DNA from: Intrasporangium sp.
GTDB lineage: Bacteria; Actinomycetota; Actinomycetes; Actinomycetales; Dermatophilaceae
Length of the DNA: 64,000 nucleotides
Direction of reading: 5' to 3'
NCBI RefSeq assembly: GCF_032907665.1
Contig: NZ_JAJJPG010000002.1
Coordinates: forward strand, 5,320-69,319
In this document: positions 1,542 through 63,285 of the stretch, one piece after another
Layout: each line of letters opens with the position of its first letter
How positions within the stretch are numbered: position 1 is the first letter of the stretch
Program-made: the position numbers and the translations under genes
Notes under the pieces: model-generated
Seen by the model: the letters and a program-made list of their open reading frames with translations, nothing else
Database searches by the model: none
Told to the model about the DNA's origin: nothing

Positions 1542-2548
1542 GCGACCACCTCCCGAGCGTCGGTCGGGTCGCTCTCGGCGGCCGCGGTGTCAGCCGAGTG
1601 CCCGGTGAGGGTGAGGAACACGTCGTCCAGCGTGGGTCGGCGCAGGGCCAGGTCATCGATCCGTATGCCGCTGTCCCCGAGCTCGGCGAGCACCGCCGAG
1701 ACCGCGCCCACCCGGTCGGACACCGGGGCGCTGACCTGCTTCAGGTCCACGTCGACCTGGGGCGCCTCGTCGGCCCATCGTGCGATGGCAGCCCGAGCGC
1801 GGTCGAGGTCTGCGGGGTCGACGACGGTGACCTCGAGCCGGTCGCCGCCGACGCGCCGTTTCAGCTCGTCCGGCCGACCCTCCGCAATGACGCGGCCATG
1901 GTCCATCACCGAGATACCGGCCGCGAGCTGGTCGGCCTCGTCGAGGTACTGCGTCGTCAGCAGGACGGTCGTGCCGTCGGCGACGAGCTGTCGAATCGCG
2001 GCCCACACCTCGCCCCGGTTGCGCGGGTCGAGGCCGGTCGTCGGCTCGTCGAGGAAGAGCACCTCCGGGCGGAAGAGCAGGGTGACCGCCAGGTCGAGGC
2101 GGCGGCGCATCCCCCCGGAGTACTTCTTCACCGGCTTGCCGGCCGCCTCGACGAGCCCGAAGCGCTCGAGCAGCTCGTCGGCTCTGGCCGCTGCGTCGCG
2201 CCTGCCCAGTCGCCCGAGCCTCCCGAAGAGGACGAGGTTCTGTCGGCCGCCGAGGATCTCGTCGACGGCAGCGGTCTGTCCGGACAGTCCGATGCGCCGC
2301 CGCACGCCCTGCGGATCGGCTCGCACGTCGACACCGGCGACCCTCGCCTCACCCTCCTGCAGGGCAAGCAAGGTCGCCAGTGTGCGGACGGCGGTGGTCT
2401 TGCCGGCTCCGTTGGGTCCGAGCAGTCCCCACACGACCCCGCGGGGCACGCGCAGGTCGAAGCCGTCCAGAGCGCGCTCCCGGCCGTACGTCTTGACGAG
2501 TCCTCGCGCGAGAATCGCGTCATCAGGTCCTGGCCCACCGAGTGCCAT
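1538..2548 (-). CDS. DrrA-family ABC exporter ATP-binding protein
   Basis: Walker A GPNGAGKT, signature YSGGMRRRLDLA, Walker B LFLDEPTTGLD; GAGGGG RBS before the ATG at 2548. Confidence 0.92.
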   Translation of the reverse strand: MALGGPGPDDAILARGLVKTYGRERALDGFDLRVPRGVVWGLLGPNGAGKTTAVRTLATLLALQEGEARVAGVDVRADPQGVRRRIGLSGQTAAVDEILGGRQNLVLFGRLGRLGRRDAAARADELLERFGLVEAAGKPVKKYSGGMRRRLDLAVTLLFRPEVLFLDEPTTGLDPRNRGEVWAAIRQLVADGTTVLLTTQYLDEADQLAAGISVMDHGRVIAEGRPDELKRRVGGDRLEVTVVDPADLDRARAAIARWADEAPQVDVDLKQVSAPVSDRVGAVSAVLAELGDSGIRIDDLALRRPTLDDVFLTLTGHSADTAAAESDPTDAREVVA

Positions 2549-2566
2549 GTCAGTCCCCTCTGGTAA

Positions 2567-2612
2567 CTTTACGGTGTAAAGCATTGCTGGGACAGATTAA
2601 AGTACGCCGTAA
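2567..2612. promoter_or_regulatory. Candidate TetR operators in the drrA/tetR divergent promoter
   Basis: Palindrome CTTTAC-GGT-GTAAAG (2567-2581) and related TACGCCGTAA (2603-2612). Confidence 0.65.
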
Positions 2613-2626
2613 GGAGTTGGCAAGCC

Positions 2627-3436
2627 GTGGTCATCTACGTGGGCCAGGGAGACCCCGAGAAGTCCATGCGCCTGTTGTGGACCGGCTCGGTGGAGCCGGA
2701 GAACCCGCAGGTCAGACGCGGTCCCAAGGCCGGCCTGACCGCAGGGAGCATCGTCGCTGCGGCGATCGCGCTCGCCGACGAGGGCGGCATCGACGCCGTG
2801 TCGATGCGCGCGGTGGGCCAGCGGCTCGGCAAGACGCCCATGGCGCTCTACACGTACGTGCCCAGCAAGGCCGAGCTCATCGACCTCATGTGGGACACCG
2901 CGCTCGGCGAGCTGCCGGACGACTACGACACCGGCGAGGGGTGGCGCCCGGCCCTGCGCCGCTGGGCCCACGACCTGCGCGCATTCCTGCTCCGGCACCC
3001 GTGGATCCTCGACGTCTCCGGAGCACGAGTCGGCATGGGTCCCAACGAGACCCGCAACCAGGAGACGTCCGCGAGGATCCTCGCCGGACTCGGGCTCCCG
3101 GGCGCAGCCCTCATGTCCTGCATCTGGTCTGTCGGCAGCTTCGTGCACGGCAACGCCCGACCGATGGCGGAGACCCGGCAGGCCGAGGTGGTCACCGGGG
3201 TCGGCGAGACGGAGTGGTGGCTGGCCCGCTCGCGGATGCTCGAGGAGGTTGCGCCCGACTACGCCGAGCGTTTCCCCGTGCTCACCCGGATGGCGGCAGA
3301 GGGAGCCTTCGACCAGGTCGACCTCGAGGGGTCCTACCTCGAGGCAGAGTACGACACCGTGTTCGAGTTCGGCCTGGAGCGGATGCTCGACGGGCTCGAG
3401 CGGTTCATCGACGCACACTCCACCCGCGAGGGCTGA
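2627..3436 (+). CDS. TetR/AcrR family regulator with TetR_C domain
   Basis: HTH SMRAVGQRLGKTPMALYTYVPSKAELIDLM; divergent from the ABC exporter. Confidence 0.92.
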   Translation: MVIYVGQGDPEKSMRLLWTGSVEPENPQVRRGPKAGLTAGSIVAAAIALADEGGIDAVSMRAVGQRLGKTPMALYTYVPSKAELIDLMWDTALGELPDDYDTGEGWRPALRRWAHDLRAFLLRHPWILDVSGARVGMGPNETRNQETSARILAGLGLPGAALMSCIWSVGSFVHGNARPMAETRQAEVVTGVGETEWWLARSRMLEEVAPDYAERFPVLTRMAAEGAFDQVDLEGSYLEAEYDTVFEFGLERMLDGLERFIDAHSTREG

Positions 3437-3523
3437 CGCGAGGCACGGACCCTGGAAGGACCCGGGCAAGCGAGACCGAGCCCAGCGGCATACGGGAAAG
3501 TGGCGTGTCGTCCCCTCAGGTGT

Positions 3524-4321
3524 TCACCCGACGCGCGAGCGGAGCCACTCGATGTCGGCGGCCTGCCCGGCCGTCCCGCCCGGTGTCTCGCAGACCACCG
3601 GTGCTCCCGCCGCACGGATGACCTCGGCGAGCGCGTCGCCGTCGATGTGCCCGGATCCGAGGTTGGTGTGCCGGTCGGCGCCGGAGTCGAAGGCGTCACG
3701 TGAGTCGTTGGCGTGCACGAGGTCGATCCGACCGGTGATGGCGCGGACCTGGTCGACGACGCTGCCGAGGTCGTTGCCTCCCGCGTGGGCGTGGCAGGTG
3801 TCGAGGCAGAAGCCCACCGCGTCGCCACCGCTCGCCGCGCCGATCGCGTCCCACAGGCGCGCGATCGCCTCCAGTCGGCGGGCCATGGCGTTGTCCCCGC
3901 CCGCGGTGTTCTCGATGAGGAGGGGGACCGGCATGTCGAGACCGTCGATGCACTTGCGCCAGTTGTCGAACCCCACGGCAGCGTCCTCCTCGACGCCGAG
4001 GTGGCCTCCGTGGACGATGACGCCCTTGGCGCCGATCTCAGCCGCCGCGAGGAGGTGCTGCTGGAGCAGCTTGCGGCCGGGGATCCGGATCCGGTTGTTG
4101 AGGCTCGCGACGTTGATCGGGTAGGGAGCGTGGACGTAGAGGTCGACTCCGGCCGCGGCCGCCTCCGCCTTCAGGGCGCTCGCGCCCCCGGGGTAGCGCA
4201 CGACCGGGCCCTTGTAGCTCTGGGGGTCACCGAGGAAGATCTGCGAGATGGACGCGCCGCGCGCCCGCGCCTCCGCGATGGGGTCCTCCTGGTCGACGTG
4301 GGCACCGATGTGAAGAGGCAT
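3524..4321 (-). CDS. nfo: Endonuclease IV (deoxyribonuclease IV)
   Basis: HAPY, IENTAG, CLDTCH, HANDS, DRH and CET metal-ligand motifs; TAGGCT -10 six nt before the ATG (leaderless). Confidence 0.9.
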   Translation of the reverse strand: MPLHIGAHVDQEDPIAEARARGASISQIFLGDPQSYKGPVVRYPGGASALKAEAAAAGVDLYVHAPYPINVASLNNRIRIPGRKLLQQHLLAAAEIGAKGVIVHGGHLGVEEDAAVGFDNWRKCIDGLDMPVPLLIENTAGGDNAMARRLEAIARLWDAIGAASGGDAVGFCLDTCHAHAGGNDLGSVVDQVRAITGRIDLVHANDSRDAFDSGADRHTNLGSGHIDGDALAEVIRAAGAPVVCETPGGTAGQAADIEWLRSRVG

Positions 4322-4392
4322 GCGACCAGCCTACGGGCGACCGGCGACGGGCTCCGGGGACAGGGCTCCGCGGCCCGCGACGTCTCACCTCC

Positions 4393-4409
4393 TGTCAAAA
4401 TGGTTGACA
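4393..4409. promoter_or_regulatory. Palindrome TGTCAA-N5-TTGACA upstream of the opp operon
   Basis: Perfect 6-bp inverted repeat in an AT-rich intergenic stretch; the right arm is a consensus -35. Confidence 0.55.
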
Positions 4410-4512
4410 ACGCTTCCATAACATGAGTGCCCTGAGTTGCGTCACCTGCCGCTCCCGGTGAAAGTGTGTCCCCAACCCCCAGATATCCCCGGGGTTTCAC
4501 AAGGAGGAGCCG

Positions 4513-6174
4513 ATGAAGGTTCGCAGGTCCGTGAATATCGCGGTCGCAACCGCAATGACGATGATGGTGGTGGCAGCGTGCAGCAGCAGCGAGACACCGA
4601 GTCCTGGCGCGACGGGTGGTGGTGGAGAAGCGACGGGTCAGCAGGGCGGTGATCTTCGGATCTATGCCTCTGAGCCGGCGTTCCTGCTCCCGACCGCTGG
4701 AGACGACGAGCCCTCGATTCTCGTCATCCGCCAGCTCTACCGCGGTCTGGTCAAGTACAACGCGGAGTCCGGCAAGGAGGAGATGGACCTCGCCGAGTCG
4801 ATCGAGTCGAGCGACCAGAAGAACTGGACCATCAAGATCAAGCCTGGCTACACGTTCGAGAACGGCGAGCCGGTCAACGCCGACGCGTTCATCCGTGCGT
4901 GGAACTACGCGGCGTACTCGCCGAACGCCCAGAACAACGCCTACTTCATGTCGCGGATCGCGGGCATCGACGAGATGACGTCCGAGGACCCGGACGGCGA
5001 TGGGCCCAAGGAGGCCCCCGAGCCGGCCGCCCAGGAGCTCTCCGGCCTCAAGAAGGTCAGCGACAACGAGTTCACCGTCGAGCTCAAGGAGCCGTTCGCC
5101 GCCTTCCCGGTGACGCTCGGCTACTCGGGCTTCTTCCCGATGGCGGACGCGTGCATCCAGGACACGAAGGCGTGCAACGAGAAGCCAATCGGCAACGGGC
5201 CCTACAAGATGGAGGGCACGTGGGAGCACAACGTCGGCATCAAGCTGGTCCGTAGCGACACGTGGGCCGGCGACAAGAACGACGCGATGGCCGACAGCCT
5301 GTCCTACAAGATCTACGCCGACGTCGACGCCGGCTACGCCGCCTACCAGGCGGGCGAGATCGACGTGATGTACACCATCCCGCCGGCTCGCTACAAGGAG
5401 GCCAAGGCCCAGTACGGCGACCTGCTGTACGAGGCACCGGGTGACTCGTTCACCTACGTCGGCCTGCCGCTCTACCGCGACGAGTTCAAGGACAAGCGCA
5501 TCCGCCAGGCCCTGTCGCTCGCGCTGGACCGGCAGCCGATCATCGACGCGGTCTTCGACGGCCGCTTCACGGCCGCCACGGGTTTCGTGGCCCCGACCTT
5601 CGAGGGCTTCCGTCCCGACGTCTGCAAGTACTGCAAGCAGGACGTCGAGAAGGCCAAGCAGCTGCTCGACGAGGCCGGTGGCTACGACGGCAAGCTGACG
5701 CTCTGGGCCAACGCCGGTGCGGGTCACGAGCAGTGGCTCCAGGCCGTCGGTGACCAGATCAAGGCCGCGCTCGGCATCGACTACGAGATCCGCGTGAACC
5801 TCCAGTTCCCGGAGTACCTCGCCACGGCCGACGCCAACAAGTTCACCGGTCCGTTCCGCCTCGGCTGGGGCCCGGACTACCCCGTCATCGAGACCTACCT
5901 CAAGCCGCTCTACGGCACGGGTGGCTCGAGCAACAACTCCGGGTACGCCAACCCGGAGTTCGACAAGCTGATCAGTGAGGGTGACTCGGCGGCCGACACG
6001 GCCGGCGCCATCGCCAAGTACCAGGCTGCCGAGGACCTCCTCGGCGAGGACATGCCGGTCATTCCGATGTGGTTCAGCAAGGTTGCGGCTCTCTACAGCG
6101 AGAACGTCGACCAGTTCGTCTGGAACAAGATCTCCGACGCTGAGTACGGGAAGATCACGCTCAAGCAGCAGTGA
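4513..6174 (+). CDS. oppA: Oligopeptide ABC substrate-binding lipoprotein (OppA/DppA)
   Basis: Lipobox VAAC; family-5 SBP motifs (PIGNGPYK, RIRQALSLALDR); AGGAGG RBS. Confidence 0.9.
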   Translation: MKVRRSVNIAVATAMTMMVVAACSSSETPSPGATGGGGEATGQQGGDLRIYASEPAFLLPTAGDDEPSILVIRQLYRGLVKYNAESGKEEMDLAESIESSDQKNWTIKIKPGYTFENGEPVNADAFIRAWNYAAYSPNAQNNAYFMSRIAGIDEMTSEDPDGDGPKEAPEPAAQELSGLKKVSDNEFTVELKEPFAAFPVTLGYSGFFPMADACIQDTKACNEKPIGNGPYKMEGTWEHNVGIKLVRSDTWAGDKNDAMADSLSYKIYADVDAGYAAYQAGEIDVMYTIPPARYKEAKAQYGDLLYEAPGDSFTYVGLPLYRDEFKDKRIRQALSLALDRQPIIDAVFDGRFTAATGFVAPTFEGFRPDVCKYCKQDVEKAKQLLDEAGGYDGKLTLWANAGAGHEQWLQAVGDQIKAALGIDYEIRVNLQFPEYLATADANKFTGPFRLGWGPDYPVIETYLKPLYGTGGSSNNSGYANPEFDKLISEGDSAADTAGAIAKYQAAEDLLGEDMPVIPMWFSKVAALYSENVDQFVWNKISDAEYGKITLKQQ

Positions 6175-10433: not shown

Positions 10434-10514
10434 GGTCGTGTCGAGATGTGAGCTTCCCAGTCGACTCAGAGGTGAAAGGCAGTGAAACGCCCCACCTGAG
10501 TCGGAGGAAGTTCC

Positions 10515-12050
10515 ATGAGCACGACCACCGAGACCGCGTCCGTCCAGCCCGACGGCACCCGGCGACCTTCAGCTCGCCAATGGATCGCCCTGGGCGTCCT
10601 GGCCCTGACCGCGCTGCTGCTGAGCCTCGACGTCAGCGTTCTCTATCTGGCCCTTCCCGCCCTGTCGGCTGATCTTGGTGCGAGCACCACTCAGCAGCTG
10701 TGGATGCTCGACATCTACTCCTTCGTTCTGGCGGGCTTCCTCGTGACGATGGGCGCCGTCGGGGACCGAGTCGGACGGAAGCGTCTCCTGCTCATCGGAG
10801 CGGTCGCCTTCGGTGTCGCGAGCGCCTGTGCGGCCTACGCCTCGTCGCCGGGTCAGCTCGTCATGTGGCGGGCGGTGCTCGGGATCGCGGGCGCGACCCT
10901 GATGCCGTCGACGATGGGCCTGATCCGCACGATTTTCACCGACGAGAAGTCGATGACGACCGCGATCGGCGTCTGGTTCAGCTGCTTCATGGGCGGCATG
11001 GCGGTCGGCCCGCTCGTGGGCGGTCTTCTGCTCCAGCACTTCTGGTGGGGCTCGGCCTTCCTGCTCGGCGTGCCCTTCATGGTCCTGCTCGTTCTCGTCG
11101 GGCACCGGGTGCTGCCCGAGTCCGACCGCCAGACCGGTGTGCGGATCGACCTCGTGAGCGCCGTGCTGTCGCTGGCGATGACCCTTCCGGTCATCAACGG
11201 CTTCAAGGAGATCGCCCGGGGCGGAAGCACGACCGCCGCGAGCGTGTGGATCACCATCGGGCTCGGAATGGCGGTCTTCTTCGTCCGCCGTCAGAGGAGC
11301 ATCGACAACCCTCTCGTCGACCTCGCGCTGTTCCGGAGCAGGGCCTTCTCGACAGCGCTGACAGTGATGCTCATCGGCGGCGTCGTCATGGCGGGGGTCT
11401 CGTTCCTCAGCACGCAGTGGCTCCAGCTCGTCGCGGGGCTCGACCCGCTGGGCGCGGGCCTCTGGATGCTCCCGGCCAACCTGGCCCTGCTCGCTGGTTC
11501 GTCATCGTCCGCGTTGATCGCGCGCCGGCTCGGCACGGGCCGCACCATGGCCGGCGGTCTCGTCGTGTGCGCGGCGGGACTGGCCCTCTACACCCAGGTC
11601 GGACCGTCCGCCGGCCTCGGGTTGCTCGTCTTCGGCATGTGCCTGACCTCGTTCGGCATCATGGTCCCCTCGACGCTCACGATGTCGGTGATGCTGCAGT
11701 CCGCACCGCCGGAGCGTGCCGGCTCGGTCGCGTCGATGTCGGAGACCTCAGGCGAGTTCGGGATCGCGGTGGGGATCGCGGGCCTCGGCTCGCTCGCCAC
11801 CTTCGTCTACCGGGACGAGCTCAGCCCGTATGCCGCTGAGCACGCTCCCGGCGCCGCGACCGTCGCGCTCGACTCCCTCGCAGGCGCGGTCCAGGCCGCT
11901 GCGGCCCTCCCCGGTACCGCTGGTCGGGAGCTGCTCTCTGCCGCACAGGACGCCTTCACCACGGGCCTCAACGTCGTTGCGGGGGTGGGCGCCGGGCTCT
12001 TCCTCCTCGTCGCAGCGGTGGCGCTCCGGGTGCTTCGCGGGGCCCACTGA
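10515..12050 (+). CDS. 14-TMS MFS efflux pump (QacA/SmvA-like, DHA2)
   Basis: WMLDIYS, GDRVGRKRLL (motif A), GPLVGGLLL, LVDLALFR. Confidence 0.88.
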   Translation: MSTTTETASVQPDGTRRPSARQWIALGVLALTALLLSLDVSVLYLALPALSADLGASTTQQLWMLDIYSFVLAGFLVTMGAVGDRVGRKRLLLIGAVAFGVASACAAYASSPGQLVMWRAVLGIAGATLMPSTMGLIRTIFTDEKSMTTAIGVWFSCFMGGMAVGPLVGGLLLQHFWWGSAFLLGVPFMVLLVLVGHRVLPESDRQTGVRIDLVSAVLSLAMTLPVINGFKEIARGGSTTAASVWITIGLGMAVFFVRRQRSIDNPLVDLALFRSRAFSTALTVMLIGGVVMAGVSFLSTQWLQLVAGLDPLGAGLWMLPANLALLAGSSSSALIARRLGTGRTMAGGLVVCAAGLALYTQVGPSAGLGLLVFGMCLTSFGIMVPSTLTMSVMLQSAPPERAGSVASMSETSGEFGIAVGIAGLGSLATFVYRDELSPYAAEHAPGAATVALDSLAGAVQAAAALPGTAGRELLSAAQDAFTTGLNVVAGVGAGLFLLVAAVALRVLRGAH

Positions 12051-25684: not shown

Positions 25685-25762
25685 GCGTCAGGTGCCGGCC
25701 ACGCGGACGCGGGCCCAGCGGCATACGGCCCCTTGTGTTGACAGTCCTGCAAGGATCGGCAC

Positions 25763-27022
25763 ATGGCTGAGTCGCGCACCCACCTCATCGGCCTGCTCCT
25801 CGGAGCCGAGGAGGACTGGCCCACGGCGTTCGAGGAACTGCTCGGGCTGGTCGGCCCCATCACCACCGACGACGGAGTCACCCACGAGCTGAGGGCCGAG
25901 CGCCTGACCATCGAGCCGTTCGACCTGCGCCAGCCGGTGCGGACCGAGCTCGTCATCGACCGGCTCGCCCACTGGTACTACCACCCGCGCGAATGGCTCA
26001 AGAAGGCGGCGCTCGTCGACGACACCTACCTGCTCAACAGCCCGTTCACCTTCCAGTCGATGGAGAAGCACAGCGCCTACTGCGCGCTCATGCGCCTCGG
26101 GCTCAAGGTGCCCCAGACGATCCTCGTGCCCTACAAGCACCCCGTGGACAACGTCCGCTGGGCCTACACCAGCGCGAAGTACAACCGTCCCTTCGACCTC
26201 AAGCAGATCGCGAACGACCTCGGCTACCCGCTCTACATGAAGCCGTTCGACGGCGGGGGCTGGCGTGGGGTCTCACGGATCGACGACGAGGGCGACCTGG
26301 TGCGCGCCTACGACGAGTCCGGCGAGATGCTCATGCACCTGCAGGCCACGATCGACTACGACGTCTTCGCCCGGGCCCTGTCGATCGGCCCCGAGACGAT
26401 GGTGATGAACTTCCGGCCCGAGGAGCCGATGCACAACCGCTACGCCGTCAGCCACGGTTTCCTCAGCCCGAGCGCCGGACGGGAGACGGCGGCGATCAGC
26501 CGGATCGTCAACGCCTTCTTCGGCTGGGAGTTCAACTCGTGCGAGATGCTCGTCACGGGCGACGACGTCTACCCCATCGACTACGCCAACGCCTGCCCGG
26601 ACGTCGCCGTCACCTCGCTGCACTACTACTTCCCATGGGCCATCAAGGCTCTCGTGCGGTGGACGGCCTACTGCCTCGTCACGGGCCGGCGCTCCAGGAC
26701 GGTCGACCTCGAGACGCGCCGCTACTTCGACGTGGCCGACCGCGACGACCTCGACGACGACGAGAAGCTCGACGCCTACCTCGCGATCGCGGACGAGTAC
26801 TTCGAGACCGCTGCCTACCAGGAGTGGTGCGCCCGGCACCTGGCCCACTTCGACGCGGCCGCCCTCGAGTGGTTCCGGAGCGACGCCTTCACCCGGATGC
26901 TGCGGCACACCGTCGACGCGACCTATCCCGAGCACGAGCGGGAGCGGTTCCTCGCGCACTTCCACGGCCTCGTCGGCCTGTGGACGCAGGACGAGGGGGC
27001 CCGGCTCGACGTCGCCCACTAG
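25763..27022 (+). CDS. ATP-grasp domain protein of unknown function
   Basis: YMKPFDGGGWRGV, NSCEM, IDYANACPD. Confidence 0.75.
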   Translation: MAESRTHLIGLLLGAEEDWPTAFEELLGLVGPITTDDGVTHELRAERLTIEPFDLRQPVRTELVIDRLAHWYYHPREWLKKAALVDDTYLLNSPFTFQSMEKHSAYCALMRLGLKVPQTILVPYKHPVDNVRWAYTSAKYNRPFDLKQIANDLGYPLYMKPFDGGGWRGVSRIDDEGDLVRAYDESGEMLMHLQATIDYDVFARALSIGPETMVMNFRPEEPMHNRYAVSHGFLSPSAGRETAAISRIVNAFFGWEFNSCEMLVTGDDVYPIDYANACPDVAVTSLHYYFPWAIKALVRWTAYCLVTGRRSRTVDLETRRYFDVADRDDLDDDEKLDAYLAIADEYFETAAYQEWCARHLAHFDAAALEWFRSDAFTRMLRHTVDATYPEHERERFLAHFHGLVGLWTQDEGARLDVAH

Positions 27023-27151
27023 GCCGTATGCCGCTGGGCCCGGCGTCCAGCTCGCGTGTCCTTCCGCGTCAGTCGGGTAAGGGCGGGCTGTCCCACCCGT
27101 CCAGCACCCATCGACGTCGAGCACGGCGTCCGAGCCGAAAGGGATGAGCCG

Positions 27152-28732: not shown

Positions 28733-29603
28733 CCGGGCGGCCGACCGTGCCGCGAACCCATCCGTGAACCCGTCGACCGACCCGGCGGGCCGGTCAGTCG
28801 ACCCGTCCCGGGACTCGGCCGCCCACCGACCCGCACCCGCGCTGGCAGCGCGCTCAGCGGCATACGGTCGGGGTCGACGGATGCTCAAGGCCGTCGGCTA
28901 CGGCCTCGTCTTCGCCGTCCCGGTGACGCTCCTCGCTTTCGTCGTGCGGCAGAAGTTCCTGCCCGTCATCGAGTTCGACGAAGCCGTCATCGCCGCTGCG
29001 ACCGACGTGACCCGCGAGAACCCTGGGCTGCGCCAGGTCCTCGTCGTCTGGCAGGAGCTGACGCAGCCGAAGTGGCCCTACATCGCCGCGACGATCCTGT
29101 GCATCGTCGTCTGGAAGCGCCATCACCTCAAGACCCGAGCCCTGTGGGCCTTCGTCACGATGATGGTGGCCTGGAACCTCCAGCTGCTCCTCAAGGAGAT
29201 CGTCCAGCGCGCCCGCCCCGTGGTCAGCGACCCGGTGTCCCACGCCCCGGGCTACAGCTTCCCCTCCGGCCACGCCGCCAACGCCGCGGCGGTCGCCACC
29301 ATCGTGACCCTCCTGGTCTGGCCGGTCCTCAGCCGGCGCGGTCGTCGGATCATGCTGGTCAGTGCCGTCGCCTATGCGGTGATCACGGCCGCCGACCGCG
29401 TGTTCCTCGGGGTGCACTTCCCGTCGGACGTCACCGCGGGCCTGCTCTTCGGCGCGGGCCTCGGCATCGCGTCCTACGTGGGCTACCTCGGCTGGAACCC
29501 CAGCCACCGTCACGCCCCGCCGCCGCCCGAGGGCACGGCCGGTCCCGAGCCGCACGAGCTCAATCCCCTTCCCCCTGAAGAAAGCGACGACGATGAGCGT
29601 TGA
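28725..29603 (+). CDS. PAP2 family phosphatase (start could instead be the ATG at 28881)
   Basis: K..VQRARP, YSFPSGH, RVFLGVHFPSDV. Confidence 0.82.
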   Translation: MPDRAADRAANPSVNPSTDPAGRSVDPSRDSAAHRPAPALAARSAAYGRGRRMLKAVGYGLVFAVPVTLLAFVVRQKFLPVIEFDEAVIAAATDVTRENPGLRQVLVVWQELTQPKWPYIAATILCIVVWKRHHLKTRALWAFVTMMVAWNLQLLLKEIVQRARPVVSDPVSHAPGYSFPSGHAANAAAVATIVTLLVWPVLSRRGRRIMLVSAVAYAVITAADRVFLGVHFPSDVTAGLLFGAGLGIASYVGYLGWNPSHRHAPPPPEGTAGPEPHELNPLPPEESDDDER

Positions 29604-36647: not shown

Positions 36648-36735
36648 CCCGTGAGTATGCCGCCGGGTAGGCTCGTGCGCCCAACGCGGGCCGTGGTGCG
36701 GGGCAGGGGATGGGGCGGAGCGGACCGTATGCCGC

Positions 36736-37236
36736 TCAGTCGCGGGCGGCGCGTCGCTCGAGGGCGCGCTCGAGGAGGGTCAAGGCGTGCACAGTGGTCC
36801 GGTCGAGGATGTCCTCGGGCTCTCCGTCCCAGCGCTGCAGGTCCGTGGTGACCTCGCCGTGGCTGCTCAACCCGAACCACACCGTGCCCGGCGGCTCGCC
36901 GTCCTGCGGGTCGGGCCCGCCGACCCCGGTGACGGCGACGGCGAGGTCGGCGTCGAGGAGGCCGGCAACCCCGACGGCCATCGCCGCGGCGGCCACCTCG
37001 CTGACCACAGGTCCGTCCGGCACCCCGAGCACGCGGTGCTTGACGTCGCTCGCATACGCCACGAGACACCCCTGGAACCACTCGCTGGAGTGGGGCGCCG
37101 CTCCGAGGTGGCACGAGACCTTCCCCCCGGTGAGGGACTCGGCGACTGCGATGGTGCGGGCGTCGCGCATCGCGGCGCGGGCGATCGCCGCCGAGGCCCG
37201 CTCGGCCTGGCTGGTGAGGTCATCAGGCGTGCTCAT
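36736..37236 (-). CDS. CinA C-terminal domain protein (NMN amidohydrolase-like)
   Basis: AESLTGG, LVAYAS, VTGVGGP, PGTVW. Confidence 0.87.
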   Translation of the reverse strand: MSTPDDLTSQAERASAAIARAAMRDARTIAVAESLTGGKVSCHLGAAPHSSEWFQGCLVAYASDVKHRVLGVPDGPVVSEVAAAAMAVGVAGLLDADLAVAVTGVGGPDPQDGEPPGTVWFGLSSHGEVTTDLQRWDGEPEDILDRTTVHALTLLERALERRAARD

Positions 37237-37340: not shown

Positions 37341-42251
<4,911 letters not shown>

Positions 42252-46312: not shown

Positions 46313-48954
46313 GGCTGCGGCTGCTCGCGCTGCTCGGCGGACAGGCGGTCGCCCTCGGGCTGACCGTCGCCTTCCTCGTCGTCCCCGCGAGCGCCGTCTT
46401 CCTCCACACCTATGGCGCAGGGGCCCTGCCCTACGCGTACCTGACGGTCGCGGTGGGCGGCGTCGCCGTGTCGTCCGCCCTCACGGTGGCGCAACGCCGT
46501 ATGCCGCTGGGCCGGCTCGCGCTCACCGTGCTGAGCCTCTATGTGGTGCTCGTCTTCGGGGCCTGGCTGCTGCTGAGCCGGTGGGACATGGCCTGGGTCA
46601 CCTTCGTCCTCATCGTCCTCTTCCCGCTCTCGATCCCCACCGGCTTCCTCGTCGTCGGCTCGCAGGCCGTGCGGCTCTACGACGTGCAGACCCTCAAGCG
46701 GGACTTCCCGCGGATCGTGTCAGGCTTCTCGATCGGCTTCGCGGCCGGTGGTCTGGCGGCTGCGGCACTGGTCGAACCCCTCGGAGCGGCGACGCACCTG
46801 CTCCTCATCGACGTCGCCATGGCCCTCGTCTTCATCGGGGTCGTCTGGGCCACGAACCGGCAGTACCCCGGCCAGCTCCTCGCAGCGCCGTCCGAGACGC
46901 GCCGGCCCACGGAGCCGAGGCGGTCCACCCCCCGGCTGGCCGAGCTGCGGCTGCTCCGCGAGCCCTTCGTCCTGCTCGTGCTCGGCTACCAGATCCTCTC
47001 AGCTGCCGTGACCCAACTGTTCGACTACGTCGTCTGGGAGCGAGCCGCCGCCTACTACGAGGACCCGGAGAGCCTGGCCCAGTTCATGGGAACCTTCGGT
47101 GCGATCCTCAACATCGTCGCGGTCCTCTTCACGCTCCTGCTGGCGGGGCGCCTCCTCGCGCGCTTCGGCATCGGATTCGGCTTGCTGGCCAACCCGTTCG
47201 GCGCCCTCCTGCTGACCATCGTCGTCCTCGGGGTGGGCGCGGGCCCGGGCATCGCGACCTTCGCCTACCTCGTCGCCGTGTGCGCGGCCCAGGTCGTCGA
47301 CATCACGTTGACCGACGGCACGACCCGCACCTCGATCGCCGCGACCTACCAGGGCATCCGGCGGGCCGATCGGCTGCGCGCCCAGACCTTCGTCGAGGGG
47401 GCGGGGATCCCCATCGCCGTCGGGCTCGTCGGGGCCTTCCTCCTCGTCGTCCGAGCCCTGGGCCTCGACGTGCGGGCCGTCGTGTGGACCACCGGAGCGC
47501 TCACCCTCGTCTGGATCTGGCTGGCGGTCCGGGCACACCGCCGCTACGGTCAGCGGCTCGGCACGGTGCTCACCGACCGGTCCTGGGACCCGGTGGCGCT
47601 CCGGGTCGACGACACGGCGGCCACGGCGGTCGAGCGGCTGCTCGAGAGCCGCGACGCTGTCGATCGGTGCACGGCGATCGAGGTCCTCAGCGACGCCCGC
47701 TCGCCGGCGGTCGTGCCCGTCGCCATGGAGGCGCTCTCGGACGTCGCAGCCGCCGTGCGCAGCGTCGCGGTCGAGGCGATCGCGGGCGCCGATGCCGCGG
47801 CGCGCCCTGAGGTCGCGGAGCGACTCGTCACGCTTCTCGCTGACCCCGACGCCGGGGTGCGCGCACGGGCCGCGGCCGCCGTGTCGCGAGAGGGATCGGA
47901 CCGGCGGGAGGACGGGCACGGGGTGTGGCGAGAGATGCTCGCCGACACGTCGACCAGGGTGGAGGCCCTCCTCGCCGCGGCCGCGGTGCCCAGCGCCGTC
48001 CTCGTCCCGGACCTCGTCGGCCTGTTGGGCGACCAGCGCATTCCACCCGCACTCGATGCCGCACTCAGCGCCCACGGTGACCATCTCGTCGACGAGCTCG
48101 CCGGGCGCCTCGAGGGCGGCCCCGCGACCCCGGGGACGGCGATCCTCAGCACCGCCGTGGCGAGAGGCGGCGGTGAGCGGGGTCGAGCGCTGCTCCTTGC
48201 CGCGCTCGTCGACGACCGCGCAGACGTCGCGGCAGCGGCGGCCACCGGCCTGTCCCGCGTGCCGCGCGAAGGGCGGGCCGCGGCCCTCGACGCCCGCGCC
48301 AGACGCGCCGTCGCCACGGCCGTCGACCGGGAGCTCCTGCACGCCGGTCATCTCGTCGACGCGCTCGACGCTCTCGATGCGCTCGAGGCGAGTGTCGATG
48401 CGGCGCCCCTGCGCGAGGCGCTCGCCGACGAGCTGGCCGAGTCGTCCCGGCGGCTGCTCACGCTCGTGGCTGTCGTCGTCCCCGGCCTCACGGCGGAGCG
48501 GGTCACGGCGGGCCTCGGGTCCAGCGACGAGCGCACGCGAGGACTCGCACAGGAGCTGATCAGCGTCGCACTGGGCCGACGGGCCTCCCGGGTCCTCGCG
48601 GTGGTCACTCCCGGCCTGGCCCCGCGGGAGCGGCTGGCCGGCCTCGGCCGGGCCGGCGCGGTGACGGACCCAGCCGCTCTCGTGGTCGACATCGCGCGCG
48701 GCGCGGAGGTGCCTTGGCGCGATCCCTGGCTGCGGGCGTCTGCCCTGCGGGTGCTGCCCGGCATGGCGCCAGAGGCCGTCGACGAGGTCGTCGCCACCCT
48801 TCGCACCGAGCGACGAGCGGGGGCCGGCGCCTCCGCCGCGGGATCCACGCTGGACTGGGTCGTCACGGAGACGGTGCAGTGGCTGGATCAGGCGGAGGCG
48901 TCGGTGGCGAGTCGGAAGTCCGCCAGCGCCTCGGCCGACCCGGAGCTGCCCTGA
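46309..48954 (+). CDS. MFS-like (Npt/TLC-like) membrane domain plus HEAT-like helical repeats
   Basis: About 12 hydrophobic helices to ~aa 410, then repeats such as LSDVAAAVRSVAVEAI and LADPDAGVRARAAAA; DPWLRASA. Confidence 0.68.
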   Translation: MRLRLLALLGGQAVALGLTVAFLVVPASAVFLHTYGAGALPYAYLTVAVGGVAVSSALTVAQRRMPLGRLALTVLSLYVVLVFGAWLLLSRWDMAWVTFVLIVLFPLSIPTGFLVVGSQAVRLYDVQTLKRDFPRIVSGFSIGFAAGGLAAAALVEPLGAATHLLLIDVAMALVFIGVVWATNRQYPGQLLAAPSETRRPTEPRRSTPRLAELRLLREPFVLLVLGYQILSAAVTQLFDYVVWERAAAYYEDPESLAQFMGTFGAILNIVAVLFTLLLAGRLLARFGIGFGLLANPFGALLLTIVVLGVGAGPGIATFAYLVAVCAAQVVDITLTDGTTRTSIAATYQGIRRADRLRAQTFVEGAGIPIAVGLVGAFLLVVRALGLDVRAVVWTTGALTLVWIWLAVRAHRRYGQRLGTVLTDRSWDPVALRVDDTAATAVERLLESRDAVDRCTAIEVLSDARSPAVVPVAMEALSDVAAAVRSVAVEAIAGADAAARPEVAERLVTLLADPDAGVRARAAAAVSREGSDRREDGHGVWREMLADTSTRVEALLAAAAVPSAVLVPDLVGLLGDQRIPPALDAALSAHGDHLVDELAGRLEGGPATPGTAILSTAVARGGGERGRALLLAALVDDRADVAAAAATGLSRVPREGRAAALDARARRAVATAVDRELLHAGHLVDALDALDALEASVDAAPLREALADELAESSRRLLTLVAVVVPGLTAERVTAGLGSSDERTRGLAQELISVALGRRASRVLAVVTPGLAPRERLAGLGRAGAVTDPAALVVDIARGAEVPWRDPWLRASALRVLPGMAPEAVDEVVATLRTERRAGAGASAAGSTLDWVVTETVQWLDQAEASVASRKSASASADPELP

Positions 48955-55486: not shown

Positions 55487-56703
55487 GGGCGGGTCACGCT
55501 GAGGATGCCGAGGCACATCTCGTCGGTGGTGCCCTCGCCCCAGACGACGTAGCGTTCCGGGGTCCCCTTGAGGGCCGGGAGCTTGTCGCGCCAAGCCTGG
55601 TCGTGGGTGCACGTGACGGTGATCCGGTCACCCGGGCCCACCGTGGTGGGCGGCACGGCCCTCGCGCCCTGGTCGTCGAAGTCCCACGTCCGGATGTCGA
55701 GGAGCGTCCTGGCCTTCGCCGTGCCGGTGTTCAGCTCGATCCGGATGCTCGAGCCGAGCAGGTGCATGTGGCCGGCCGACGCCCTGATGACCGCCGGCTC
55801 CGTGACGGCGCGGGTGCAGGACTGGGTCGGTCCCGGCTGCGGGTCGACTCCTCCTGTGCAGATCATGAGCAGGCCGGCGACGGTCCACGGGGCACGGTCC
55901 CCGAAGCGGGTGGCGACGTCCTGGATCGCGGTCTGCCGGTCACACAGGGGCCCGGACCTGCCCTCGCGACAGGGCAGCTCGACCGGCGCTGGGTAGAGCA
56001 CCGTCTCGAGGGCCGACAGGCTGGGCGAGGTGGACAGGCGCAGGTCGACCGCGGTCCGGTCGGGCTTCGCGCCGTCGAGCAGGTTGTAGTGCACCTGGAG
56101 CACGAGCTGGGAACCCTTCTCGAGCGGGATGCCGAGGTCGGGCTCGAGCAGCCGTTCCGTCCCGCCGGGAGCCCAGGCGCCGACCCACGGTGCGTCGTCG
56201 AGACTGGCGCCCTGCGCCTCGATTCCGGTGCCGCCGAAGCAGGTCCACCCGTCACCCGGGGCTGCGGCGTCCTGGGCGCGGGCGAGGTCGACCTTGTCGG
56301 GCGCGACGCGGTAGAGGATGACGTGGTGCACGACGGCCGGCTCACCCGGGACGACGTCGTATCCGGTGACGAAGCCGTCCTCGTCCAGGGCCGGGTCGAG
56401 CAGGAAGCAGCGGTAGTCGTCGGTGCCCCCATGGGGAGCCCGGGGCACGTAGTCGGCCGGCATGGCCACGCGCTTCAGTTCCTCCCCGGCACGAAGCGGG
56501 GCGGGCGCAGGCTTCGGGGTCGAGGGGTGCGTCCCATGTCCGGGCGGGGGCGCCCCGGTCCCAGTGGCAGCCGTCGTCGGGCTCGCGCCCGGGTGCCCCG
56601 CCAGCTCAGCCGTGGTGCCCGGGTCGGGCTCGCCGGGGCCGCATCCCGTGACGAGCAGGACGAGGGCCGCGCCGAGCGCGACAAGGAGGCGGCCTGTCCT
56701 CAT
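55483..56703 (-). CDS. Copper type II (PHM/DBH-like) monooxygenase lipoprotein
   Basis: Lipobox VTGC; HHVILY, QVHYN, HMH and DEMC copper-ligand motifs. Confidence 0.8.
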   Translation of the reverse strand: MRTGRLLVALGAALVLLVTGCGPGEPDPGTTAELAGHPGASPTTAATGTGAPPPGHGTHPSTPKPAPAPLRAGEELKRVAMPADYVPRAPHGGTDDYRCFLLDPALDEDGFVTGYDVVPGEPAVVHHVILYRVAPDKVDLARAQDAAAPGDGWTCFGGTGIEAQGASLDDAPWVGAWAPGGTERLLEPDLGIPLEKGSQLVLQVHYNLLDGAKPDRTAVDLRLSTSPSLSALETVLYPAPVELPCREGRSGPLCDRQTAIQDVATRFGDRAPWTVAGLLMICTGGVDPQPGPTQSCTRAVTEPAVIRASAGHMHLLGSSIRIELNTGTAKARTLLDIRTWDFDDQGARAVPPTTVGPGDRITVTCTHDQAWRDKLPALKGTPERYVVWGEGTTDEMCLGILSVTRP

Positions 56704-57503
56704 CGGTCCAGTCCAGAAGGGTCGCTCGGAAGGCCTCCCGGGTCGTGGGCGCACACGAGCTCGACCTCGTCCGTATGCCGCTGGGCCAGCTCGGACAGGG
56801 ACGTGCGGGTCTCGCTCCACGCCCTTCGATCGGTGCGGACCACGACCTCGGACAGAAGCAGGGGCAGGGGTGTCCGGTCGCCCGTGAAGGCGCGGTGTGA
56901 GAACGAGGCGTCACCGACGTGGAGCAGCCACGGCGTGCGGCCCTCGGACCGGCGGACGGCGACGCCGATGTGTCCCGGGACATGTCCCTCGAGAGGAACC
57001 ACGTGCAGGTCACCCCCGCCGAATGGCAGAGGTGCACTGGGCAGACCGAGGAGCTCAGCGGCATACGGCGGCGTCGTGCTCCAGCGGGGACCGTGCGCCC
57101 ACTGCACCGCCCGCATCCGGCCGGCGAAGCGCAGGGGGACGCTCGGCCTCACGTTGGCGAGCATCCGTGGCGACACGTGGACGGTGGCCCGAGGGAAGTC
57201 GCTGAGGCCACCCGCGTGGTCGCTGTCCAGGTGCGTCAGGATGATGTGCCGCACGTCGGCGGGGTCGAGTCCGAGCGCACGGGTCCGCGCCTGCGCGGTC
57301 TCGCCCGGGTCGAGCACAGGGCGGCTCAGCACGCGGAGCACGCGGCCGACCCGTCGGTTCGGACGTGCGATGTCCTGGAGGCCGAAGCCGGTGTCGACGA
57401 GGACGAGGCCGTCGTCGCTCTCGATGAGGAGGCAGTGGCACACGAGGTCGCCGCCCACGGGCCGCATGGTTCCGCAGTTGAGGTGGTGCACCCTGAGCGG
57501 CAC
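56700..57503 (-). CDS. Metallo-beta-lactamase fold hydrolase
   Basis: THLDSDHAGG, GHVPGH, GDA, CAHD. Confidence 0.87.
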   Translation of the reverse strand: MPLRVHHLNCGTMRPVGGDLVCHCLLIESDDGLVLVDTGFGLQDIARPNRRVGRVLRVLSRPVLDPGETAQARTRALGLDPADVRHIILTHLDSDHAGGLSDFPRATVHVSPRMLANVRPSVPLRFAGRMRAVQWAHGPRWSTTPPYAAELLGLPSAPLPFGGGDLHVVPLEGHVPGHIGVAVRRSEGRTPWLLHVGDASFSHRAFTGDRTPLPLLLSEVVVRTDRRAWSETRTSLSELAQRHTDEVELVCAHDPGGLPSDPSGLDR

Positions 57504-57512
57504 GTGCAGGCC

Positions 57513-59225: not shown

Positions 59226-59359
59226 GCCCTTCCCCTCACATCGGTGCCGGCGATCTCACCCTAGCCAAGCCGTCGCCATGCCGTTCCCGTATGCCGCCGG
59301 GCTGGCTCCACGGACGCGGTGGTCTTGCGTCCCTCTCGGCTTCCCCTAGGGTGCGACAC

Positions 59360-59746: not shown

Positions 59747-59797
59747 CGTGCCGCAGGGGGGCTGCCCATGACCTCACGCGGTCGGGCGACACGGGTG

Positions 59798-61546
59798 TCA
59801 GAAGGGTGGGGGCTCGTCGGGCGGTGGTGGCCACGGCCGTCGAGGAGGTCGGGGAGGGCGCGGGTCATCCAGCGCCTCGCGATAGTCCTTGGAGAACGTG
59901 GTGTAGTCGCGCCCGGCGAGGGTGCGCCAGAGCAGTCCTCGGGTGGTCGCGTGGTCATCGGTCGGGACGCACGACCAGAAGCGAGCCGTCTTGAGGTTGT
60001 GGTGTGCCCGGTGCAGCGGTCCACCGTTGCGGGTGCTGGTCTCGCCGCCGGGGTAAGGCACGTGATGGTCGATGTCGCACCGGTGCGCCGGGACCTGGCA
60101 ACCAGGTCCACGGCAATGGCCGTCGAGGGCCCGGATCTGCTCGACGATGGCCGGCGTGGGTCGGTAGCGGTCCGTGCTGAGGTGCAGGGCCCGCCCGGTG
60201 AGGGCGTCGACACCCAGCCACCGCCACTCGGAGCCCGGCGCGGTGATGATCGCACGGGCCTGCTCGGCGGTGACCCAGCCGTGTCCGGGGATCTCGCAAG
60301 CGGCGTCGCCGGCGCCGGTGGCCACCTCGAAGGGGACGACGATCCAGACGGTGGCCGGCGGGGCGGTCGGTGCACAGGGACAGGGCCCGGGCTCGCCCGT
60401 CGCCGCCGTGATCGGCTCGGCGTGGCTCGGCCGGCACGGCGCGAGGGCAACGGCGCGCGGTGTCTCGTCTCCGGGTGCAGCACTGTCGGCCGTCGGAGGC
60501 CGGCCGCTGGCCGCCTCGTGTGCAGAGTGCTCCGCGCAGGGGCCGTAGGTGTGGCCGAGGAGGCCGTCGGTGGCGAGGTCGGAGCGCAGCTGGTCCAGGG
60601 TGCGCGGGTCACCCGCTGCGCGCAGTGCGCGGGCGAGGGTCTCGATGCGCTCCAGGATGGCGACCGTGCGCTCGGCGCTCGTCGTGATGGTGATGACTCC
60701 CGTCCCGTGCTCGTCGAGCTGTCCGTGCGCGGAGCGTCGGGACAGCGCGTCCCCTCGGCGGCCGCCGGAGTCGGCAGGGGAGAGCGAGGCGAGGACGCGG
60801 CGCAGCCGCCGCACGATGACCTGGTGGCTGGGACGCGACCCGTCCCGCATGGGCGCGAGGACGCGCTCGACCACCGAGCCGATGACGTCGTCGGGCAGGT
60901 GCCGGGCATCGGTGGCGATGAGGGTGGCGTGATGCAGTGACACGGCGCCGACGGCGAGCCGGTCGAGCAGCGAACGGTGCCGGCGGGGCGCCGCGGCCAA
61001 CCGCAGGCGCCGCGAGGCCTCGCCAGCGGGCACAGCAGTGGCGGCGACCACCTCGTGGGCGACCAGCTGCCCCACGCTCACCGCAGCCTCGGCAGGGCTC
61101 TCCCGCGGGAAGCCCTCGGGCAGCTGCGCGTCGTGCGCAGCGTGCTGCTCGGTCATGACGGTGTGCAGGGCCCCGTAGGCCTCGACCAGGCGCGCATCGA
61201 CCCGGGACCGCTCCGCCTCCAACGCCTCGATCTCGGCCAGCAGCGCCGCGGATGCCTGCTCCAGCGACAGCCCCTCGGCAGACTGGCCCGGCGCCGGCAC
61301 CCCGGACGGCGCGGTGACAGCGGCCTGGTCGGAGACAGCGGCCTGATCAAGCGCAGTCGGTTCCGTCGACGGCTCGTCGTGTCCGGCCACGACGTCCCAG
61401 CCGACCTCGACGCCCTCGGCCTCCCGGAGGTCGAGCCAGGCCAGATCGAGCGGCACCACCCTCCCCCGCCCACTCGTCGCGTCGTGCGCCGCGCCACGAG
61501 CGAGGACGTGCTCGAAGGGGGACAGTGCAGCGGCGGTGAACGGCAC
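59798..61546 (-). CDS. DUF222-HNH endonuclease (13E12-repeat-like)
   Basis: DPRTLDQLRSD, YRPTP, CRGPGC...CDIDH...GGET..N...HH.LKT; start position uncertain. Confidence 0.85.
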   Translation of the reverse strand: MPFTAAALSPFEHVLARGAAHDATSGRGRVVPLDLAWLDLREAEGVEVGWDVVAGHDEPSTEPTALDQAAVSDQAAVTAPSGVPAPGQSAEGLSLEQASAALLAEIEALEAERSRVDARLVEAYGALHTVMTEQHAAHDAQLPEGFPRESPAEAAVSVGQLVAHEVVAATAVPAGEASRRLRLAAAPRRHRSLLDRLAVGAVSLHHATLIATDARHLPDDVIGSVVERVLAPMRDGSRPSHQVIVRRLRRVLASLSPADSGGRRGDALSRRSAHGQLDEHGTGVITITTSAERTVAILERIETLARALRAAGDPRTLDQLRSDLATDGLLGHTYGPCAEHSAHEAASGRPPTADSAAPGDETPRAVALAPCRPSHAEPITAATGEPGPCPCAPTAPPATVWIVVPFEVATGAGDAACEIPGHGWVTAEQARAIITAPGSEWRWLGVDALTGRALHLSTDRYRPTPAIVEQIRALDGHCRGPGCQVPAHRCDIDHHVPYPGGETSTRNGGPLHRAHHNLKTARFWSCVPTDDHATTRGLLWRTLAGRDYTTFSKDYREALDDPRPPRPPRRPWPPPPDEPPPF

Positions 61547-61618
61547 GTCCCCCCCTTCCCAGTCGGCCCTCTGCGGGCGCCTGCCGGCTCGCCGACCTGC
61601 CCGGCGAACCACCTCAAT

Positions 61619-61634
61619 TCGAACATGGTTTCGG
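61619..61634. promoter_or_regulatory. LexA (SOS) box-like site upstream of the HNH gene
   Basis: TCGAAC-ATGG-TTTCGG versus the actinobacterial consensus TCGAAC-N4-GTTCGA. Confidence 0.5.
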
Positions 61635-61776
61635 GCGATCCGGCAAGGCATTTTCCACAGTATGCTCCGCGAAAGCGACTGGTGCGCAAAGAAACTGGCA
61701 AGGCGGTGCCAGCTCAGCGGCATACCACTGAGGTCTGACAACCCACCGCTGCCGCGACGGACGCTACGGTCTGCCC

Positions 61777-63285
61777 ATGGACTACGTCGTCGCGATCGAC
61801 CAGGGCACCACGAGCACGCGCGCGATCGTGTTCGACCGGTCAGGGAGCATCGTCGCGATGGACCAGCGCGAGCACCGCCAGATCTTCCCCCGGTCCGGCT
61901 GGGTGGAGCACGACCCGCTCGAGGTCTGGGAGAACGTCCGGGCGGTCGTCGGCGGCGCGCTCGGCAAGGCGAACCTCGATGCCCAGCGCATCGTCGCCGT
62001 GGGCCTCACGAACCAGCGCGAGACGACCCTCGTGTGGGACCGCACCACCGGCAAGCCGGTCCACAACGCCATCGTCTGGCAGGACACCCGCACCCAGGCG
62101 ATCTGCGACGAGCTCGCCGGCGACGTCGGTCCCGACCGGTTCACGGAGCAGACCGGACTCCCGCTCGCGACCTACTTCGCCGGCCCGAAGATCCGCTGGA
62201 TCCTCGACCACGTCGAAGGGGCTCGTGGGCGGGCAGAGCGGGGCGAGCTGCTGGCCGGGACGATGGACACATGGATCCTGTGGAACCTCACCGGCGGCCC
62301 CGACGGCGGCGTCCACGTCACCGACGTCACGAACGCCTCGCGCACCCTGCTCATGGACCTGCGCACGCTCGAGTGGGACGCGCAGATCGCGGCCGAGATG
62401 GGCGTCCCGACGGTCCTGCTCCCCGAGATCCGCTCGTCCTCGGAGGTCTACGGCTCGTGCCAGCCGGGCATTCTCCTCGACGTGCCTGCGGCCGGCATCC
62501 TCGGCGACCAGCAGGCGGCCACCTTCGGGCAGGCCTGCCTCGAGCCGGGCACCGCCAAGAACACCTACGGCACGGGCAACTTCATGCTCCTCAACACCGG
62601 CGAGGAGATCGTCCCGTCACGACACGGGCTCATCACCACGGTCTGCTACCGGCTCGGTGATGCGGCACCGGTCTACGCACTCGAGGGGTCCATCGCAGTG
62701 ACGGGGTCTCTCGTCCAGTGGCTGCGCGACAACCTCGGCCTCATCCGGTCGGCCGACGAGATCGAGCAGCTCGCTGCCACCGTCGAGGACAACGGCGGGG
62801 CCTACTTCGTGCCGGCCTTCTCGGGACTCTTCGCGCCGCACTGGCGTCCCGACGCCCGTGGGGCGCTGGTTGGCCTCACCCGCTACGTGAACAAGGGGCA
62901 CATCGCGCGAGCAGCCCTGGAAGCCACGGCCTTCCAGACGCGAGAGGTGCTCGATGCGATGAACGCCGACAGCGGGGTCCCGCTCACCGAGCTGCGGGTC
63001 GACGGCGGAATGGTCGTCAACGACACGCTCATGCAGTTCCAGGCCGACCTCCTCGGCGTGGACGTCGTTCGTCCGAGGGTGGCCGAGACCACCGCGCTCG
63101 GGGCGGCGTATGCCGCTGGGCTGGCCGTCGGGTACTGGTCGGGTCCCAGCGACGTGACGGACAACTGGGGGGAGGACCGGCGCTGGTCGCCATCGATGGA
63201 CCCGACCGAGCGCGAGCGCCTCTACCGCAACTGGAAGAAGGCGGTGCAGCGCACCCTCGACTGGGTCGACGACGACACGCCCTAG
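61777..63285 (+). CDS. glpK: Glycerol kinase
   Basis: [44 protein letters not shown]. Confidence 0.95.

Follow-up and report, generated by a model that had tools for sequence, protein, structure and literature searches.

An asymmetric, hyperabundant DNA word with strand-specific spacing in Intrasporangium and related Dermatophilaceae: a candidate self-DNA signal

The window analysed here, a 64,000-nt stretch of DNA (G000:C2:5320-69319), comes from the draft genome of an Intrasporangium species (G000; 3.996 Mb in 261 contigs, 70.6% G+C, 91% complete), and a Pfam search of it identified a drrA-like ABC ATPase, an MFS transporter, Lhr, a HEAT-repeat protein, an MBL-fold protein and the FGGY kinase GlpK. 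The genes for all of these proteins contain a short DNA word, the 11-mer AGCGGCATACG, which is present in the window in 12 exact copies (five on the plus and seven on the minus strand) compared to 0.04 expected from dinucleotide-preserving shuffles, a number that none of 100 shuffles reached. Across the genome there are 832 exact copies, i.e., ~1 per 4.8 kb, split almost evenly between the strands (423 on plus, 409 on minus), versus only four copies of the reversed word, and the top-ranking 10-, 12-, 14- and 16-mer of the genome are all this word. The word is asymmetric and non-palindromic with a core of 9–11 nt; its 9-mer core GCGGCATAC has 1,149 copies (one per 3.5 kb) and is nearly invariant, each single-base variant having 0–13 copies compared to 747 for the exact CAGCGGCATACG. 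Weaker flanking positions stretch the Intrasporangium form to approximately GGGAGC..GCYCAGCGGCATACGGC with up to ~20 informative positions, and this extended profile is nearly identical between copies deep in open reading frames (ORFs) and strictly intergenic copies. The shuffles, the reversed-word control and the outgroup comparisons described below rule out chance or codon bias as the source of the word.

To assign copies relative to genes, we used a codon-likelihood classifier trained on 209 long genes, by which 775 copies were classifiable; it supersedes a gene call based on ORFs and G+C content at third codon positions, in which the number of coding copies (311–411) was overstated by spurious high-GC ORFs. 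Only 131 of the 775 copies (17%) were confidently inside a continuous coding frame compared to 56% of random positions, 281 (36%) had non-coding DNA on both sides compared to 8% of random positions, and 305 were at a gene end. Allowing for the sensitivity of the classifier, about one quarter to one third of the copies are coding while ~70% lie at or between gene ends. Copies pile up 0–100 nt after stop codons, with many starting 2–30 nt past the stop. Moreover, 71 adjacent pairs within 150 nt are inverted and have two forms, head-to-head with loops of 5–9 nt and tail-to-tail with a 10-nt spacer, for which the predicted folding energies are -40 and -31.5 kcal/mol, respectively (z = -9.3 and -4.6). 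A single copy has no predicted RNA structure (fold z = +0.9), ~550 copies are without a partner inside 80 nt, and an Rfam search detected no RNA family in the window, arguing against a known RNA family as the identity of the word. A second abundant word, GGGGCCACTCGA, has 253 copies in the genome, usually as intergenic palindromic pairs and none of them in the window; it is sometimes found between two copies of the main word (e.g., G000:C26:14363-14480 and G000:C202:2706-2830).

An earlier note on this stretch had proposed that the word lies inside genes in several reading frames, that it uses rare codons and that the force maintaining it acts on the DNA rather than on the peptide. Codon by codon, we recovered the readings on which this proposal was based: SGIR (AGC GGC ATA CGG) in the drrA-like ABC ATPase and lhr, QRHT (CAG CGG CAT ACG) and PYAAE (CCG TAT GCC GCT GAG) in the MBL-fold gene, PYAAE in the MFS gene, RMPL (CGT ATG CCG CTG) in the HEAT-repeat gene, and GCG TAT GCC GCT GGG within the GAAYAAG peptide of glpK. 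Genome-wide, the 131 confident coding copies occupy all six frames (xYAA 63, AAYx 40, SGIR 11, QRHT 11, RMPL 5, VCR 1); the part of the proposal on several frames therefore stands, with the qualifications that their use is very uneven, Y-A-A or A-A-Y readings making up 79% of coding copies, and that most copies are outside genes. The use of rare codons was borne out: ATA is the rarest Ile codon in the genome (220 codons, 0.7% of Ile), and 37 of these 220 codons (16.8%) are inside the word, the corresponding shares being 5.0% for TAT, 1.4% for CAT and 1.3% for GCT.

Comparison of orthologues points in the same direction. Throughout the order, GlpK has an unvarying GAAYAAG peptide, and in eight of ten Intrasporangium species it is spelled GCG TAT GCC GCT GGG CTG while the spelling in the other two departs from this by one or two synonymous bases; the 20 other genera all lack it, using TAC and GCC, GCG or GCA instead, and the synonymous sites flanking the word vary freely among congeners. 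Next, we took 30 random confident coding sites, joined all of their flanking peptides into a single query and searched five motif-poor genera. An aligned homologue was found for 18 of the 30 sites, and in none of the 38 ungapped comparisons at these sites was the word present, with 2–8 of the 11 bases differing. Because the outgroup orthologues lack the nucleotides of the word, we conclude that the target of the force is the DNA rather than the peptide; neither the codon tabulation nor the orthologue comparison contradicted this proposal. All 38 comparisons also had at least one amino-acid difference in the four to five codons concerned (for instance, LLSYADRL changed to LLSYAARL, or LWHDAYGR changed to LWSAAYGR, the form with the word being given second). 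The word therefore forces replacements in addition to rare synonymous codons, and the synonymous convergence suggested for these genes holds for glpK but is not the only type of change. Most coding copies arose by substitution. Two are possible in-frame insertions: one of the sampled sites (site 20) is a six-codon insert (EPSGIR), and the linker of lhr has the full GGGAGCGAGCCCAGCGGCATACGG unit in four species, whereas three have a 27-nt gap in its place and two a decayed form. For the MBL-fold gene, a search of 24 relatives, nine congeners among them, detected no orthologue at E ≤ 1e-30.

As a measure of persistence, 112 8-kb loci of other Intrasporangium species were aligned to G000 (median identity 81%). 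Of 106 aligned G000 copies, 86 (81%) were conserved exactly at the orthologous place compared to ~9% under neutral decay, and most of the non-conserved copies differed by a single base, in many cases with G replacing A at position one. This difference from the neutral expectation indicates that the copies are old and actively maintained and that there was no recent burst.

The spacing of the copies depends on their relative orientation. In the window, copies switch strand at 10 of 11 steps. Genome-wide, and compared to random placement within contigs, same-strand pairs are strongly depleted at less than 1 kb (6 observed vs 76 expected, 0.08x) and progressively less so at 1–2 kb (26 vs 71.5, 0.36x), 2–3 kb (44 vs 66.8, 0.66x) and 3–5 kb (92 vs 118.9, ~0.78x), reaching ~1.0x beyond 5 kb, whereas opposite-strand pairs are at expectation (1.0–1.1x) from ~150 nt upward, with the hairpin pairs in addition. 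The same-strand exclusion was seen alike in coding-coding, coding-intergenic and intergenic-intergenic pairs, and among 19 genes with a copy at both ends the copies were inverted in 17 and direct in two. Because same-strand neighbours within ~3 kb are almost never kept while opposite-strand neighbours are, we favour the interpretation that only one strand of the word is read and that its effect in cis reaches a few kb. Another possible cause of the exclusion, the loss of direct repeats through deletion, is weakened: any two copies have on average only ~14 contiguous nt in common, and the resemblance within surviving close direct pairs is hardly lower than within inverted ones (13.7 vs 13.8 nt, p = 0.03). 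There is no replichore polarity, the probability of the same orientation being 0.49 at 5–11 kb and orientation being independent of skew and gene strand, and a polarity like that of FtsK-orienting polar sequences (KOPS) or of classical Chi is therefore rejected. On contigs of at least 8 kb, GC skew and coding-strand bias were negatively correlated (Spearman -0.53), and contig-scale skew in G000 therefore reflects the coding strand rather than replication. In genus g77, an independent lineage (genome G139, one copy per 1.9 kb), the same-strand exclusion is partly repeated, with same-strand pairs below 500 nt at 0.26x and non-hairpin opposite-strand pairs at ~0.77x; in genus g4 there was no spacing effect among the 111 copies examined.

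The word is restricted to the family and varies within it. All ten Intrasporangium genomes have 730–1,080 copies of AGCGGCATACG while other genera of the family have at most 70. By contrast, roughly half of the 73 family genera scanned (201 genomes) have 200–2,800 copies of the core GCGGCATAC (reversed control, 1–80 copies) while the remaining ones are at background, a pattern that is consistent within each genus and separates ~35 motif-rich from ~33 motif-poor genera; outside the family, 298 genomes of the same class, from ~70 families, have the core at background frequency. Hence, the expectation that the word would be confined to this lineage applies to the hyperabundance of the 11-mer in the genus and not to the core, which many genera of the family have in common. 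The flanks form genus-specific dialects: Intrasporangium has A-core-G and a long extension on the 5' side, g4 has T-core and g77 has C-core-C. In a sister genus (G012, 400 kb scanned), the top 10-mer is TGCGGCATAC, and G010 has no such top word. In the literature searched, the word appeared only as a chance primer match, and no uptake sequences were described for Actinobacteria.

The copies in the window (Table 1) illustrate these features. Three are intergenic (3484, 25717 and 27025) and two that would count as genic (28856 and 36726) are in uncertain 5' parts of ORFs; for the former of these two, coding status is uncertain because the PAP2 Pfam domain begins only at residue 263. The gene at 25742-27019 (plus strand, 426 aa) has no Pfam match at 1e-5 and is flanked by a perfect 21-bp inverted pair of the word. 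Because such a pair fits the general same-strand exclusion, this arrangement need not be a cassette.

Table 1. Copies of the word in the 64,000-nt window
Location of copy	Position	Strand	Remarks
drrA-like ABC ATPase gene (1541-2596, -)	1662..1672	-	On the gene's own strand; SGIR with rare ATA
Intergenic, between two convergent genes	3484..3494	+	Lone copy without hairpin partner; single-copy fold z = +0.9
C-terminal tail of MFS transporter gene (10500-12047, +)	11827..11837	-	PYAAE
Intergenic, just upstream of gene 25742-27019	25710..25730	+	Left arm of perfect inverted pair
2 nt after the stop of gene 25742-27019	27022..27042	-	Right arm of the bracketing inverted pair
N-terminal extension of PAP2 ORF	28856..28866	+	AAY frame; coding uncertain
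Codon ~15 of stop-to-stop ORF, DUF3516 DEAD-box helicase	36726..36736	-	Probably leader, before the true start
Hypervariable linker of lhr	41838..41848	+	SGIR
HEAT-repeat gene	46498..46508	-	RMPL
Near 3' end of MBL-fold gene (56703-57512, -)	56772..56782	-	QRHT
MBL-fold gene, second copy, on the opposite strand	57057..57067	+	PYAAE
glpK, invariant GAAYAAG peptide	63107..63117	-	Synonymous TAT, GCT and GGG CTG choices

Our working hypothesis, which we hold tentatively and at somewhat less than an even chance, is that the word serves as a self-DNA signal, read from a single strand and spread by sequence-biased uptake or recombination, like the DNA uptake sequences (DUS) of Neisseriaceae and the uptake signal sequences (USS) of Pasteurellaceae. 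According to this hypothesis, donor DNA with the word would be favoured at uptake or just after it, by protection of the incoming strand or recombinase loading, and mutations or small insertions that create the word would be passed on more often than the alternative, amounting to molecular drive. The word would then accumulate where it is tolerated, that is, between genes and in tolerant parts of proteins, mostly in the Tyr-Ala-Ala or Ala-Ala-Tyr frames, and intergenic inverted pairs would also provide hairpins after stop codons. The signal would be read on one strand only and its action in cis would span a few kb.

The likeness to DUS, which was already suggested in the earlier note, extends to most features. 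DUS are 10–12 nt long and have dialects (Frye et al. 2013, PMC3630211). Like the word described here, they have an asymmetric core of 10–12 nt with weaker flanks, hundreds to thousands of copies in equal orientations, intergenic enrichment as inverted pairs that form terminator-like hairpins after genes, copies in all coding frames, conserved orthologous sites, and a shared core with lineage-specific flank dialects. They differ in that they belong to Proteobacteria while this word belongs to Actinomycetota with their Gram-positive envelope, and in that the density here is lower (~1 per 3.5–4.8 kb). In addition, DUS have biased uptake and a ComP-like receptor, whose counterparts here would be putative. 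The interplay of USS with proteomes was described by Findlay & Redfield (2009, PMC2817400). As with the word, coding USS are in few frames and at tolerant protein positions and impose amino-acid changes, and there are two or more lineage types with a common core. However, USS are mostly genic whereas only ~25–30% of copies of the word are in genes, the flank of USS is AT-rich, and for USS the uptake bias has been shown experimentally. About 65% of USS are in genes.

Several observations weigh against this hypothesis. The likeness to DUS fails most notably in spacing: while same-strand neighbours alone exclude each other here, DUS in Neisseria (375 in 39 loci) show a mild exclusion that is equal for both orientations, with 0.65x for same-strand and ~0.61x for opposite-strand pairs below 1 kb excluding hairpins. 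Because of this orientation-specific spacing, the system is no simple copy of the DUS case. The MBL-fold gene is accessory and without orthologues in congeners, and yet it has two copies on opposite strands. Natural transformation of Dermatophilaceae was not documented in the literature searched, and no candidate reader or receptor protein turned up among the proteins considered. As for uptake machinery, G000 has profile matches to ComEA, to DprA and to a pair of T2SSE (Tad-type) ATPases. Four of five congeners, and 198 of the 201 family genomes, have ComEC; that it was not found in the G000 draft probably reflects an assembly gap with ComEA at the very end of a contig. ComEA is universal in the family. 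ComEC and ComEA are thus in nearly every family genome, motif-rich or motif-poor; consequently, these uptake genes would permit transformation without explaining which genera have the word, and the presence of either is rejected as an explanation of its distribution. Finally, the connection of the word to uptake or recombination, as well as the existence of a reader protein, is what we infer from patterns in the sequence. As a side observation, two HHH_3 ORFs (G000:C250:2614-2799 and G000:C102:605-799) represent ComEA and a second protein; the latter, of ~800 aa and found in 6 of 81 family genomes, is probably Tex and not a ComEA paralogue.

We considered alternative explanations in the light of the same data. 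Concentration of copies at gene boundaries, orthologous conservation, the nearly invariant core and the inverted copies in most genes with a copy at both ends would all agree with a binding site for a family-specific protein on the resident chromosome, which would function in nucleoid organisation, insulation or gene-end termination and be maintained by selection on each site. However, at least 131 copies lie deep within genes, some along and others against the direction of transcription, selection alone would hardly keep ~1,000 sites of minute individual effect, binding of a protein to the duplex leaves an exclusion that concerns only the same strand unexplained, and single copies have no RNA structure nor does the window contain an Rfam family; we therefore regard this explanation as unlikely. 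Same-strand exclusion in the kb range is, on the other hand, what a directional reader predicts, and in this respect the word resembles Chi, which is likewise taxon-specific, read on one strand by a directional machine and, in E. coli, spaced similarly (~1 per 5 kb, compared to ~1 per 4.8 kb here). For a Chi-like signal, the reader would be a translocating helicase-nuclease of the AdnAB type that, on meeting the word on one strand, halts degradation and loads RecA; the word would thereby mark self DNA and stimulate two-ended break repair; if it acted on incoming DNA, this explanation would overlap with our working hypothesis. The opening of the core, AGCGG, is identical to the Chi of Bacillus subtilis, and this may be a coincidence. 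Known Chi sequences are, however, only 5–8 nt long, modestly over-represented and co-oriented with replication, and they lack intergenic or hairpin-pair enrichment, whereas the word has 9–11 nt and up to ~20 informative positions, an excess of at least 200-fold, no strand bias relative to replication, and strong enrichment between genes and in hairpin pairs. RecC (PF04257) was not found in G000 or G007; in the family it is patchy (24 of 81 genomes) and if anything commoner in motif-poor genera. RecBCD is consequently an improbable reader, RecC being not found in Intrasporangium and unassociated with motif-rich genera, and a Chi-like signal in general appears quite unlikely.

Hyperabundant words that occur in genes as well as outside them, with more conservation than coding requires, a patchy distribution across lineages and no agreed mechanism, are also known from cyanobacteria as highly iterated palindromes (HIPs, including HIP1). 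By analogy, methylation combined with very-short-patch-like repair toward the word, unrelated to DNA exchange, might maintain it. HIP1 shares with the word its occurrence in every reading frame of genes, a conservation exceeding what codons demand and differences among related lineages. Yet HIPs are palindromic and linked to methyltransferases while this word is asymmetric with strand-specific spacing; such repair can preserve words but would hardly create a 200-fold excess or insert 27-nt units; and the kb-range exclusion is unaccounted for. We consider this explanation improbable. Lastly, most copies are intergenic, after stop codons and often in inverted, palindromic pairs, and the possible insertions in lhr and at site 20 are in frame, all of which is reminiscent of mobile repeats spread by a transposase, such as repetitive extragenic palindromic (REP) elements and REPINs with their REP-associated tyrosine transposase (RAYT) or miniature inverted-repeat transposable elements (MITEs). 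In contrast to these, the single unit is no hairpin, most coding copies arose in genes by substitution in ungapped alignments, the sites are old and orthologous between species, and a search for the Y1/RAYT transposase (PF01797) found none in G000 or in four of five congeners, one of them a complete genome. A REP/RAYT-type mobile repeat is therefore rejected, and the broader idea of a mobile repeat is largely refuted and highly improbable.

Some regions of the genome are nearly free of the word. The longest motif-free stretches have slightly lower G+C; a polysaccharide cluster and a RuBisCO-CbbX cluster lie there along with genes of insertion sequences (IS) and integrases. These stretches look like accessory or acquired DNA, in line with our working hypothesis. 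One of them (G000:C15:1728-22084) is 20 kb long, of slightly lower G+C, and encodes CbbX, the RuBisCO large subunit and a molybdopterin oxidoreductase; such genes would not be expected in this genus, and they may have been acquired. Another region of 37 kb (G000:C11:11564-49030) has one core copy and carries an ISL3-like transposase, an IS21 fragment, a tyrosine integrase and accessory metabolic genes. A 14-mer probe matched 120 viral contigs with 1–2 core copies each, numbers that are uninformative on phages of this host.

Among natural cases in which molecular drive by a DNA word moulds genomes and proteins, uptake sequences are the principal one; to our knowledge, they come from two proteobacterial families only. 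It is possible, if on balance doubtful, that Dermatophilaceae have a DNA-exchange specificity system that would be the first uptake-sequence-like system outside Proteobacteria and, with a word that is read on one strand and takes effect over a few kb, would combine the drive, dialects and hairpin pairs of DUS with the directional reading of Chi. Motif-rich and motif-poor genera side by side, together with the flank variants, provide a natural experiment in which phylogenetic profiling could find the reader protein, and the strand-specific spacing informs how such signals are read, i.e., as duplex or single strand and at or after uptake. The word may also have practical uses in binning, in spotting foreign DNA in genomes of the family and possibly in transformation tools. 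If the suggested system exists, soil and activated-sludge actinobacteria would regularly exchange chromosomal DNA, via natural transformation or a related route, and this would indicate unrecognised gene exchange in a group that includes wastewater and some animal-associated genera.

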